From Candidatus Latescibacterota bacterium (GTDB lineage Bacteria > Latescibacterota > UBA2968 > UBA8231), in NCBI GenBank assembly GCA_965204725.1, contig OZ242005.1:1888001-1952000 (forward strand): 64,000 nt of DNA, written 5' to 3'. Positions 20,969 to 24,577 of the stretch are shown piece by piece. The translations under genes and the position numbers were made by a program. The notes under the pieces were generated by a model, which had not been told where the DNA came from, did not search any database, and saw only the letters and a program-made list of their open reading frames with translations. Numbering within the stretch: the stretch's first letter is position 1; every line of letters starts with the position of its first letter.

Positions 20969-23900
20969 ATGACGCCTCCCCGCAAAAAGCTCATCGAAGT
21001 CGCCCTGCCGCTCGACGCCATCAACGAGGCCGCGGCGCGGGAGAAGTCGATTCGGCATGGGCATCCGAGTACGCTGCATCTGTGGTGGGCGCGGCGACCA
21101 TTGGCCGCGGCGCGGGCGGTGATTTTCGCGCAGATGGTGAATGATCCGTCGGCTCGACCCGATCTGTTCCGCACGGAGGCCGACCAAGACAAGGAGCGCG
21201 AGCGGCTGTTTGGCCTTATCAAGGAATTGGTGCAGTGGGAGAATACCACTGACGAAAGGGTGTTGCAGCAAGCCCGCGACGAGATTTGGGCAAGCTGGCG
21301 GCGGACCTGCGCCGATAATGCCGATCATCCCCGGGCCGCTGAATTGTTCAGCCCGGATGCGCTGCCGGCCTTTCACGATCCGTTTGCCGGCGGCGGCGCG
21401 TTGCCGCTCGAAGCGCAGCGATTGGGGCTTGAAGCTCATGCCAGCGACCTCAATCCGGTGGCGGTGCTCATCAACAAGGCCATGATCGAGATACCGCCTA
21501 AGTTCGCCGGGCAGGCGCCGGTGAATCCGGCGTCTCGCGAGGAAAAGGGCCTGATCGAGCGCGCATGGAAGGGGGCGCAGGGGCTGGCCGAGGATGTGCG
21601 CTACTATGGGCAGTGGATGCGCGACGAGGCCGAACGGCGCATTGGGCATCTGTATCCGCAGGTTGAGATTGCCGAGGAGATGGTGCGGGAGCGGCCCGAC
21701 CTTAAACGCTACAAGGGCCGCAAGCTGACAGTGATTGCGTGGCTGTGGGCGCGGACAGTGAAAAGCCCCAACCCGGCGTTTGCCGATGTGGATGTGCCGC
21801 TGGCCTCGACCTTTATGCTTTCGACGAAGAAGGGCAAGGAGGCATACGTTGAGCCGGTGATTGAGGGGCGTGGGTATCGGTTTGCGGTGAAGGTGGGAAC
21901 GCCGGAGGATGTGGACGCGGCGAAGGCGGGGACCAAGCTCGCACGGGGAGCGAATTTTCGCTGCGTGATGTCAGGGACGCCGATAGCGGGCGACTACATC
22001 AAGGCCGAGGGGAAGGCCGGGCGGATGGGGGCACGGCTGATGGCTGTCGTGGTTGAGGGAGACCGCGGGAGAGTGTATTTGGCACCGACGCCGGAGCACG
22101 AGGGAATTGCCGCGCTGGCGGAACCGACGTGGAGACCAGAAAATGAGCTTATTGGCAAATGCCGGGACCAGCTACCGCTCTATGGCATGAATACTTTTGC
22201 CGACCTCTTCACCCCCCGCCAACTCGTCGCCCTGACCACCTTCTCCGACTTAGTGGCGGAAGCGATGGAGCGCGTCAAAAACGATCACCCGGGATCGAGG
22301 GCGTCTCGCCCTCGGCAAAGCGACGAGAGCGAGATCCCCTCCCCCCGAGGAACTGAGACCTCCGATGCGTCATCCCCAAGGGTAACCCCGTCCACTCCTT
22401 TCCACCGCACTCGTCTTCCCCACTTTGAAGCTGGCGAGGTCCCCCAGCACATTTGTTTTCGCCTCTCCGACAGCCTGCCGCAGAACCTACTCTACGAATG
22501 GGAGGAGGAATTGTCGCGGCTCGCAGAAGATGACCGCAAGACCGAGCGTCGCCGCCGGGTCGAAGCCGTGCTGGATCGCAGCTACGGTGCGTGCTGGCTG
22601 CGTCGTCCCGAGGTAGCGGCATTGGTGCGTGACGCCTTGCTCCACTTCGATGGCGTACGCTATCGGCTGCACGAATGGACGATCATGCCCAATCACGTAC
22701 ACGTGCTGGTATCGCCTCAACCGGAGATCCCCCTGTCCAGCGTGGTGCATTCGTGGAAGTCCTATACCGCAAAGCGGGCGAACGAAGTGCTGAAACGGAA
22801 GGGCTCTTTCTGGCACAGGGATTATTTCGATCGTTTCATGCGTGATGAAGAGCATTATCGGGCAACGGTCGAATACATCCGTCACAACCCGGTGAAGGCC
22901 GGCTTGTGCAGAAGCGAGGAAGAATGGCAGTGGAGCAGCCAAAACCCTCCCCCCTCTCCCCCCTCTCCCCCCTGGGATCGAGGGCATCTTGCCCTCGATA
23001 AGGAGGGCGAGACGCCCTCCCTCCTTACTACCCCGACCCCGGTTGACGACGACCAGCCCCTGCGCGACGGGGGCACCGGCGCGACAGCGTATGCCGAGGC
23101 GGTGGGGCTATATTTGGCGTTTGCACTGTCAAAGATTTCAAACGTCGGCTCATCTCTTGCTTCTTGGATGAATGATCGCGGCGCATTTCGGGAGACTTTC
23201 GCTCGACAAGCCCTACCAATGGTCTGGGATTTCGCTGAGGCGAATCCGTTCACGGACGCTAACGGCAGTTTAGAGACAGCCCTTGATAAAGGGGCAATGG
23301 CGATCAATGCGTTCCCTGCACTAAATGCTGGCTCAGGAAATCAACTCGACGCAGCCAACCAAACGATCAGTACCGGCAAGTTGGTCTCCACTGATCCGCC
23401 GTACTACGACAACATCGGCTACGCCGACCTGTCGGACTTCTTCTACGTCTGGCTACGCCGGGCAGTACGGTCAATCTATCCCGATTTCTTCGCTACACTC
23501 GCTGTACCGAAGGCCGAAGAATTGGTCGCTACTCCATACCGGCATGGCAACAAGGAAAAGGCGGAGACCTTTTTCCTTGCCGGCATGACCGAGGCGATGC
23601 GTCGTCTCGCCGAGCAGTCGCATCCGGCCTATCCAGTCACCATCTATTACGCTTTCAAGCAGTCCGAGACCAAAGGCGACACCGGCACGGCGAGTACAGG
23701 CTGGGAAACATTTCTTGATGCCGCTCTTCGCGCTGGTTTCAAGATCAGCGGTACTTGGCCGATACGAACAGAGGGGTCTGGGAGGATCCTTGCAAAGGGC
23801 ACCAACGCCCTCGCCTCGTCCATCGTCCTCGTCTGCCGCCAACGCCCTACCACCGCACCCATGGCCACTCGCCGCGAATTCGTCGCCGCGCTCAGAGCCG

Positions 23901-24577
23901 AACTCCCCACTGCCCTCGCCCACCTACAATCCGGCAACATCGCCCCGGTTGACCTCGCCCAAGCCGCCATCGGCCCCGGCATGGCCGTATTCACCCGCTA
24001 CGCCCAAGTGCTCAACGCCGAGGGCAACCCCGTCTCAGTGCGCGAGGCCCTAGCCCTCATCAACCAGATACTCGACGAAGTGCTCGCCGAGCAAGAAGGC
24101 GACTTCGACCCCGACAGCCGCTGGGCCTTGGCATGGTTCGAGCAGCACGGCTTCGACGCGGGCGAATACGGCGTCGCCGAAACCCTGTCCAAAGCCAAAA
24201 ACACCAGCATCGCCGGCATCGTCGAGGGCGGCATCCTCGCCTCCAGCGCCGGCAAGGTGCGCCTGCTGCCCCCGGACGAATTAGCCGCCGACTGGGACCC
24301 AAAGGCCGACGACCGGCTCACCGTATGGGAGGCCGTCCACCATCTCATCCGCGCCTTGGAAACCGGCGGCGAACCCGCCGCGGCGCGGGTCGTAGCCCAA
24401 CTCGGCGCACAGGCCGACATCGCCCGCGAACTCGCCTACCGCCTCTACACCATCTGCGAACGCAAACGCCGCGCCGCCGAAGCCCTCTCCTACAACAGCC
24501 TAGTCCAAAGCTGGCCCGAAATCGCCAAGCTGTCGCGGCAGGAGATGCTGGTCGAGGGCGACCTGTTCGGGGATTAA
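20969..24577 (+). CDS. DUF1156-family amino-DNA methyltransferase with in-frame RAYT insertion
   Basis: [10 protein letters not shown]...HLWWARRPL (DUF1156), motif I DPFAGGG, motif IV TDPPY; about residues 440-692 are a transposase insert. Confidence 0.92.
22286..23044 (+). mobile_element. REP-associated tyrosine transposase (RAYT/Y1 HUH) with flanking REPs, in frame inside the MTase
   Basis: RLPHF...[11 protein letters not shown] motif [27 protein letters not shown], catalytic [16 protein letters not shown]; REPs at 22291-22314 and 22974-23024. Confidence 0.9.

Follow-up and report, generated by a model that had tools for sequence, protein, structure and literature searches.

A REP-flanked RAYT cassette nested in frame within the methyltransferase HmaB of a candidate Hma defence locus

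The closest described relative of the element reported here is the REPtron, a gene for a REP-associated tyrosine transposase (RAYT, or TnpAREP) flanked by repetitive extragenic palindromes (REPs) and represented by the TnpARep structure 4ER8 and the protein model NF047646. Bertels and Rainey describe RAYTs as single-copy, vertically inherited, absent from plasmids and not known to self-transpose, and REPINs as almost exclusively extragenic (bioRxiv 10.1101/2021.07.10.451892). The plasmid and phylogeny analyses behind this view of RAYTs as immobile are those of Bertels et al. 2017 (PMC5581495). A classification of the Y1 family noted patchy distributions resembling horizontal gene transfer, and its survey discarded over-long proteins (Quentin et al. 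2018, PMC6006769). The other system of concern is Hma, a candidate defence system of helicase, methylase and ATPase, which PMC11232893 attributes to Payne et al. 2021. Here we describe a 64,000-nucleotide stretch of DNA from Candidatus Latescibacterota bacterium (contig OZ242005.1, positions 1,888,001 to 1,952,000; hereafter the window, with position 1 as its first letter), in which a complete REP-RAYT-REP cassette lies in frame inside hmaB, the methyltransferase gene of an Hma locus.

The insert in the window resembles a REPtron in encoding an HUH motif and a catalytic tyrosine, in scoring above the cut-off of NF047646, in being flanked by REPs in inverted orientation, and in being single-copy in a genome that holds dispersed matching REP doublets. 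However, a REPtron is free-standing and extragenic, whereas the insert sits inside a coding sequence, has neither start nor stop of its own, and has its REPs translated. Moreover, published RAYTs are described as vertically inherited, whereas this one is patchy within its genus and decoupled in its history from its host gene; it is thus not a free-standing, extragenic, vertically inherited RAYT. As in other Hma systems, the locus encodes HmaA, HmaB and HmaC, and the methyltransferase motifs are intact; it differs in the 253-amino-acid (aa) foreign domain of HmaB and in an interval of about 6 kb between hmaB and hmaC, occupied by genes of lower GC (a DUF6615 gene and a split SIR2 pair resembling Dsr1). 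No description of a RAYT nested in a DUF1156/HmaB protein was found in the literature searched, coverage of which was incomplete for subscription journals. As far as we have seen, the architecture has been catalogued in public databases under generic names and not interpreted; the fused proteins of about 1200 aa are named either 'DUF1156 protein' or 'REP-associated tyrosine transposase'.

The host gene, hmaB::RAYT, is a single stop-free open reading frame (ORF) of 1202 aa at 20969..24577 on the forward strand (+), identified by Pfam, NCBIfam and PADLOC as a DUF1156/HmaB DNA adenine methyltransferase with the nested cassette. Pfam found three families in it and no others, namely DUF1156 (PF06634; aa 12-82, 107.9 bits), Y1_Tnp, and a weak match to the D12-class methyltransferases (MethyltransfD12) at motif I. 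The PADLOC profile for HmaB, PDLC00660, matched at 1543 bits in two stretches, one on each side of the insert. The equivalog model NF042963 (DUF1156_antiphage) gave 109.5 bits against a cut-off of 1000, so that the window protein is not that model's equivalog, though PADLOC assigns it to HmaB. The N-terminal part of the methyltransferase (aa 1-439; 20969..22285, +; Pfam and homologue alignment) carries DUF1156 and motif I (DPFAGGG, 21377-21397), and the C-terminal part (aa 693-1202; 23045..24577, +; alignment and PADLOC) carries motif IV (DPPY, 23393-23404). Both halves are full-length when aligned with homologues, and every invariant motif is retained, motifs I and IV included. A first-pass annotation, made by a model from the letters alone, had read this ORF as a DUF1156 methyltransferase interrupted in frame at 22286-23044 with motifs I and IV intact on either side, and the alignment with uninterrupted homologues bears it out on both counts. 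These homologues also set the junctions: the cassette comprises 253 codons (aa 440-692; 22286..23044, +) and follows directly after ...AMERVKND, where uninterrupted relatives have the 7-aa loop AANADLP. Relative to uninterrupted forms, the protein is longer by about 246 aa net, and the junctions read D/HPG on the left and PV/DDD on the right.

Hairpin and pattern searches resolved the ends of the cassette. On the left lies a G-type REP (22291..22314, +), with the hairpin GAGGGCG-TCT-CGCCCTC and a GGGATC 5' flank, translated as GSRASRPR. On the right, where one long hairpin had been annotated at first, there is instead a doublet of two REPs, a direct A-type copy translated in frame (22974..22997, +) and an inverted G-type copy translated as EGETPSL (23003..23024, -); the accompanying claim that translated REPs bound the insert at both ends holds. 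The left REP and the inverted right REP form a terminal inverted repeat of 22 nucleotides (nt) that is 91% complementary. Between them lies the RAYT (Y1 HUH) domain (about aa 482-660; 22412..22948, +), delimited by Pfam, NCBIfam, an AlphaFold2 model and a match in the PDB. As had been predicted for a complete Y1 domain, the insert passes both relevant profiles: Y1_Tnp at aa 565-639 with 43.1 bits (Pfam cut-off 23), and REP_Tyr_transpos (NF047646; NCBIfam cut-off 80) with 84.5 bits for the whole protein, 87.5 bits for the insert alone and 88.5 bits in a six-frame search of the genome, covering profile positions 26/27-146 of 146. The IS200 model NF033573 reached 33.5-36.4 bits, under its NCBIfam cut-off of 55. 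The sole solved structure matched by sequence was E. coli TnpARep, 4er8_A (E 3.8e-5). Sequence reading and alignment to 4er8_A place the HUH motif (HVH) at 22694-22702 (+) and the catalytic Tyr codon at 22874-22876 (+); in 4er8_A they align with HMH and with the Tyr of YIYINPVKHG.

The cassette lacks its own canonical start codon. Neither ATG nor GTG nor TTG occurs in frame between 22268 and 22510, and the first-pass annotation had already noted the missing ATG ahead of the RAYT N-terminal motif; the closest upstream in-frame ATG is that of methyltransferase Met433 (22265), seven codons ahead of the insert, and the next possible start, Leu515, is already beyond the first RAYT strand. An AlphaFold2 model of the 1202-aa protein was built from a 116-row alignment (mean predicted local distance difference test score, pLDDT, 70.4; predicted template modelling score 0.38). 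In it, the RAYT domain (about aa 480-660) was confident, with pLDDT 77-95, and the REP-encoded linkers (aa 442-477 and 664-703) fell below 50, as did the loop at aa 194-200, which is the second insertion site of relatives, and aa 725-960 of the methyltransferase C-terminal part. The top Foldseek match was again 4er8_A (E 5.1e-5, TM-score 0.63 on the target), followed by the TnpA proteins of IS200, IS608 and ISDra2; Foldseek found no methyltransferase template for the model. The predicted order of the translated product is methyltransferase N-terminal part, REP linker, folded HUH/Tyr RAYT, REP-doublet linker and methyltransferase C-terminal part. Base composition gave no sign of recent import, with 61.1% GC and a third-position GC (GC3) of 0.69 in the insert vs 62-63% and 0.73-0.75 in the methyltransferase.

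The junctions were checked against contigs assembled from public sequencing runs of four studies, coded X1, X3, X4 and X5, of which X1 may be the source sample. Contigs from X1 (2358 nt) and X3 (2388 nt) span 21800 to about 23425 with 0 differences, and contigs from X4 cover 21800-23019 and 23026-23448, also with 0 differences. A 1218-nt contig from X5 crosses both junctions with 9 differences, and so represents a slightly diverged strain with the same insertion. Junction-bridging contigs thus come from runs of at least three studies, and the misassembly or junction frameshift that would undo the annotation is not seen. A joint 22272->23069 in X1 (depth 43) was considered as an excision product and rejected: its contig, at the same depth, differs at 17 of 95 letters elsewhere, and it is a different, uninterrupted homologue in a mixed sample. 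The first-pass annotation had also proposed looking for an excised, empty allele; none of the same strain was present in the contigs examined, which cannot reveal rare variants.

The layout is recurrent across phyla and is not a single event. A whole-protein search listed 120 homologues, and all counts from it are among those listed: a RAYT is present in 64 and absent in 56. A search with the RAYT part among proteins of 661-2104 aa returned 329 matches at E<=1e-10; of the 120 listed, all but one (119) are DUF1156 proteins, and the exception is a class I tRNA ligase. Altogether, an in-frame RAYT is present, at the same two or three loops, in no fewer than 140 non-redundant HmaB-type proteins, and these come from many phyla. 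Their sources include Chloracidobacterium thermophilum (two proteins, 1219 and 1203 aa, annotated 'REP-associated tyrosine transposase'), Caldilinea aerophila, Ca. Venteria ishoeyi, Methylococcaceae, Azoarcus, Defluviicoccus, Myxococcota, Tectomicrobia, Verrucomicrobia, Phycisphaerae and Ca. Kapaibacterium. The RAYT family as a whole, at 15,899 representatives (E<=1e-3), is mostly free-standing, and most of its best 150 matches are 180-300 aa long. Across 168 genomes of the window's own phylum, a six-frame search detected HmaB in 43; among the listed rows, 41 HmaB frames are uninterrupted (905-1087 aa) and 9 carry a RAYT (1203-1441 aa).

Of the inserts in the fetched proteins, 120 follow ERVKxD, the window's site (site 2), and 26 follow NPEARAK (site 1), a position that corresponds to about aa 192 in the window protein. 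Some proteins are occupied at both sites, including P0001, P0002 and a frame of genome G077, and P0182 is occupied at a third site, near reference residue 302. RAYTs also reach distant DUF1156 subfamilies, namely G008:C198 (at the equivalent of site 2), G026:C53 (in a zinc-ribbon region) and the P0305 group. When read at the DNA level, the cassettes at both sites have the same ends: on the left TAYYTNGG and a hairpin, read as YLGARASRP, and on the right an inverted hairpin and CTCCCAGG, read as GETPALPG. All five site-2 junctions read in this way start right after the Asp codon (GAY) of ERVKxD, and no target tetranucleotide was shared between site 1 (..RAAG before the junction) and site 2 (..CGAY) among 10 junctions read by eye. 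For the P0067 group, the closest relatives of the insert, the junctions are known from protein only. A search of genome contigs for related loci gave 17 loci with 31-61% identity in the best segment, none of them from the insert clade of the window. Also, 4 of the 56 uninterrupted proteins have an in-frame REP without a RAYT at the site-2 loop; in genome G007, of the window's genus, a 57-nt REP doublet lies in frame exactly at site 2 of hmaB, before the original loop (L005, ~3030-3106), and in genome G008 three REPs of another family lie in that loop. The tRNA ligase, P0308 (1358 aa, from a Planctomycetaceae metagenome-assembled genome), has an in-frame RAYT cassette with REP-like linkers inside its catalytic domain (tRNA-synt_1 20-645, Y1_Tnp 758-833, Anticodon_1 987-1143), and is a second kind of hard-to-lose gene that hosts such a cassette.

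Purifying selection acts on the RAYT as well as on the methyltransferase. The HUH motif and Tyr are canonical in 118 of 120 site-2 and 26 of 26 site-1 inserts (144/146), and the ratio of nonsynonymous to synonymous substitution rates (dN/dS) of the RAYT core is 0.06-0.27, in fused and short-frame copies alike; homologous inserts are therefore not decayed, and the decay that the first-pass annotation had named among the outcomes against its claim is not seen. For the methyltransferase halves of the window compared with four relatives, dN/dS was 0.14-0.25. In the six-frame search, all 11 RAYT matches within DUF1156 frames of the phylum were in frame and stop-free. Moreover, no Met occurs between the methyltransferase boundary and the first RAYT strand in 51 of the 59 site-2 inserts that could be anchored (61 of 120 could not be and were left out); the linker up to that strand is 32-100 residues long and very variable in both sequence and length. 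Five short-frame RAYT copies (L018-L022) were found in another genus, about 10-14 kb from fused hmaB genes, and purifying selection persists in them. Two of the five retain the methyltransferase left flank FSDLVSDVMERVK and so derive from a resident cassette; in these flank-bearing copies the methyltransferase's own Met codon may serve as the start.

Identities and trees show that the history of the cassette is decoupled from that of its host gene. In a FastTree methyltransferase tree built after removal of the insert columns, the window gene falls in a supported clade of 13 uninterrupted genes, and the insert states require at least 19 changes. The window methyltransferase is 93-94% identical to P0004 and P0005, both without insert; among fused methyltransferases its closest match, P0003, reaches no more than 82%, and the insert of P0003 is 63-64% identical to that of the window. 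Conversely, the nearest relatives of the insert are 74-80% identical to it and lie within methyltransferases that are only 65-68% identical; for P0067, the values are 80% for the insert and 65% for the methyltransferase. The flanks of the window insert match P0004 and P0005 up to 2-3 residues from the junctions, whereas those of P0067 differ. When each of 89 full-length site-2 proteins was paired with the one closest to it in the insert, that partner was also a near-best match in the methyltransferase in 58 cases and clearly discordant in 13. In RAYT trees, resident and free-standing copies interleave, an approximately unbiased test on a 70-row subsample rejected a single clade of resident RAYTs (p 8e-39), and the clade of site-1-type RAYTs includes 5 site-2 members. 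Within the genus of the window, only 3 of 30 other genomes have this RAYT, each configured differently: at site 2 with another RAYT lineage in G144, at site 1 in G013, and in a paralogue in G008.

REPs of the same family are abundant in the window's genome (G000; a 5.43-Mb assembly of two contigs, 94% complete). A 24-nt REP pattern has 12 matches in the window vs 0 in 100 shuffles, and these copies lie around the hma locus. A specific pattern found 184 copies in G000, in two hairpin variants (G-type and A-type) with 92 each, which usually form inverted doublets with conserved flanks, and a 17-nt core pattern found 174 copies vs 0 for a reversed control. In genome searches the insert was the sole match in G000 to NF047646, to Y1_Tnp (PF01797) and to the insert protein itself. 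Core REPs number 174, 87, 68 and 15 in the RAYT-bearing genomes G000, G008, G144 and G013, and 28, 18, 4, 2 and 2 in RAYT-less ones; the exception is G007, which has 251 and no Y1_Tnp domain and looks like an orphaned REP population left by a recent loss of the RAYT.

Our preferred explanation, to which we give a probability of roughly 55%, is that a REP-RAYT-REP cassette is sheltered in a permissive loop of HmaB, a gene costly to lose, is expressed only as a fusion, serves the REPs of the genome, and spreads with and between hmaB genes. Under this explanation, HmaB would be the methyltransferase that protects the host in the Hma system, one of its flexible surface loops would house an in-frame REPtron, and the RAYT would be made only as part of HmaB. 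On single-stranded DNA, the HmaB-RAYT protein would work in trans at REP hairpins, the activity supposed for free RAYTs. The cassette may persist while the rest of the Hma system is present, a state in which loss or disruption of the host gene would be costly; it would be retained because other states except precise deletion destroy the protective methyltransferase, and only in-frame, stop-free versions and precise deletions would survive. It presumably travels between genomes with hmaB and with defence islands, and exchange between hmaB alleles may proceed by recombination in the near-invariant flanks or by action of the RAYT at pre-existing REP scars in the loop. The first-pass annotation had offered a tolerated in-frame parasite or a domesticated fusion; the former is favoured because the closest methyltransferases (93-94% identical) lack the insert, because three different loops are used in different homologues, and because the same kind of cassette lies in frame in a class I tRNA ligase. 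The idea of shelter is also supported by the in-frame scars that consist of REPs alone at the same loop, in 4 of 56 uninterrupted proteins and in G007 and G008.

Several points weigh against this explanation. The enrichment for DUF1156 (119/120 of the long RAYT-bearing proteins listed) is far above what generic permissive loops would lead one to expect; it points to a specific targeting mechanism or a functional tie, and keeps alive the alternatives of homing and of a tie to Hma. That loss of HmaB is costly through self-restriction by HmaA/HmaC is assumed by us from restriction-modification logic. Neither a plasmid collection (E<=1e-15) nor a phage collection (E<=1e-10) gave a match to the RAYT core that would point to a vehicle of horizontal spread. 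The 70 rows of the approximately unbiased test had been picked after the first tree was seen, and one row counted among them as 'free', P0232, comes from a fused protein, of which it is a fragment. For most of the trees FastTree or quick IQ-TREE runs were used, and the comparison of REP abundance, across 10 related, non-independent genomes, is a pattern and not a statistical test.

A tentative alternative, which we hold to be possible but somewhat doubtful, is that these REP-RAYT-REP cassettes form a non-splicing, intein-like mobile class, exchanged among fixed hmaB loops, riding defence islands between phyla and seeding REPs, with the fusion protein as the active REP enzyme; REP scars or invariant flanks would then be the landing pads. 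Like inteins with homing endonucleases, the insert is a selfish DNA-enzyme cassette in frame at a conserved site of a hard-to-lose gene, with sites reused in diverged host alleles and a phylogeny decoupled from that of the host gene. Unlike inteins, it has no Hint or splicing domain in the Pfam scan; it starts with His-Pro-Gly and is followed by Asp, so that no protein splicing is expected and a permanent domain insertion must be tolerated. An actively homing element, excising and inserting precisely through single-stranded DNA in the manner of IS200/IS605 and preferring hmaB loops or REP scars, would explain the constancy of the site by transposition. The insert has the catalytic fold of the Y1 TnpA of IS200/IS605, hairpins close to each end as in those elements, and a mechanism by which such DNA can leave and enter without a trace; it scores below the IS200 cut-off, is single-copy, and falls outside that family. 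Different RAYT lineages and REP families start at the identical phosphodiester in all five site-2 junctions, site-1 and site-2 cassettes have common ends, a site-1-type clade holds 5 site-2 members, and the window flanks fit the uninterrupted P0004/P0005 to within 2-3 residues of the junctions and not P0067. We nevertheless regard homing as unlikely: the insert is single-copy in G000 with no second insertion site there, sites 1 and 2 have no common target tetranucleotide, no same-strain empty-site allele occurs in the contigs, and the view published by Bertels and Rainey (bioRxiv 10.1101/2021.07.10.451892), is that RAYTs do not self-mobilise. Furthermore, near-invariant flanks of 60-75 nt would equally permit plain homologous recombination.

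It is also improbable, to about the same degree as homing, that the HUH/Tyr domain has been domesticated and now functions within HmaB or the Hma system, where it might tether the methyltransferase to single-stranded hairpins, or nick invading or replicating DNA, and so link methylation to REP processing. The nearest methyltransferases do without the insert, the three loops differ and the linkers are very variable, the short-frame copies L018-L022 remain under purifying selection outside an intact methyltransferase, and a tRNA ligase hosts the same kind of cassette. The flanking hairpins are, moreover, identical to about 180 genomic REPs, which an enzyme servicing REPs needs and a defence nuclease does not. 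Set against these observations are the strong and specific association with DUF1156 (119 of the 120 listed), which extends to the distant subfamilies G008:C198, G026:C53 and P0305, the retention of the catalytic residues (144/146) with low dN/dS, the absence of an own start codon, and the presence of the insert in 9 of about 50 full-length HmaB frames of the phylum. Finally, the ORF might be an artefact or a decaying remnant, that is, a misassembly, a chance open frame over a disrupted methyltransferase, or a dead transposase. High-GC DNA does yield long chance open frames, and over-extension of the gene call probably accounts for several other long RAYT proteins, such as those fused to creatininase and Fer4. 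Yet contigs from runs of at least three studies bridge the junctions, the methyltransferase halves are full-length with their invariant motifs kept, the frame is maintained in more than 140 homologues, and the catalytic residues and low dN/dS are retained; this explanation is highly improbable and, as far as the sequence data show, refuted.

The layout runs against the usual picture of RAYTs as stand-alone, immobile genes, since a whole RAYT clade lies inside coding sequence, and any expression of it would be as a domain within a defence methyltransferase. If sheltering in HmaB is correct, it would represent a new mode of persistence for a DNA element, in a costly-to-lose gene and without splicing, and the defence island would be a candidate vehicle for the horizontal spread of REP systems; if the intein-like alternative is correct, it would supply the missing horizontal route by which REP/RAYT systems enter new genomes. 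The fused, scarred and empty hmaB alleles, which are about 91-94% identical, would provide natural pairs for tests, together with the REP-rich, RAYT-less relative.

Some further observations concern related cassettes and the rest of the genome. In a DUF1156 paralogue about 50% identical (L023, G008:C198; a 1288-aa frame), arrays of REP units, each of about 35 aa, ..TDAPLGVRTSRPQQDDT.WQARRLPSQGEDTCEAQ.., are translated in frame on both sides of the RAYT, with three units ahead of it and no fewer than two behind. The site-1 cassette of L045 (G090) has a second palindromic insertion in the loop of its left REP hairpin, and the frame stays open. The carriers of the closest relatives of the insert (P0067, P0044, P0079 and P0117) are 1427-1450 aa long, about 230 aa longer than the window protein; in P0067, the only carrier scanned, the surplus lies at the N-terminus, where about 238 aa precede DUF1156. 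Elsewhere on contig C1 of G000, two more DUF1156 methyltransferase genes, at 5072298-5075099 and 5362266-5364845, encode frames of 949 and 1063 aa that are 46-54% and 33-41% identical to that of the window, neither with an insert. Seven other REPs of G000 fall in long open frames. Six REP copies on C1, at 336175, 1907362, 2077198, 4183100, 4592159 and 4866204, sit within frames of 316-919 aa that contain no stop and stay open for at least 120 aa to either side; these may be intragenic REPs or chance upstream open frames.

The remainder of the Hma locus lies about 6 kb downstream of hmaB, and PADLOC found all three components. The gene hmaC (30714..34037, +; Pfam, and PADLOC HmaC at 1120.8 bits) encodes an AAA+ ATPase of the DUF499 family that bears HEPN_Swt1 at its N-terminus, and hmaA (33955..37560, +; Pfam, and PADLOC HmaA at 1621 bits) an SNF2/DEAD helicase with a NOV_C domain. 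Between hmaB and hmaC lie a SIR2 gene (24574-25773), which matches the N-terminal part of Dsr1, a gene for 895 aa (25774-28461), which matches its C-terminal part, and then a DUF6615 gene (28890-29735); the three have 49-53% GC vs 62-65% in the hma genes. The pair at 24574-28461 resembles a split Dsr1-like defence gene, and the block at 24574-29735 a foreign insertion within the Hma operon. Immediately upstream of hmaB is a small DUF4325 (STAS-like) gene (20558-20914) that matched no PADLOC model. Pattern search placed REP doublets upstream of the locus at 19361..19409, of the same family as those of the insert, and at 20313-20341, and three doublets of that family directly upstream of hmaC (30447..30658). 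In HmaC, the Swt1-like HEPN domain occupies aa 11-124 and precedes the DUF499 ATPase; it may act as effector nuclease in this variant of Hma.

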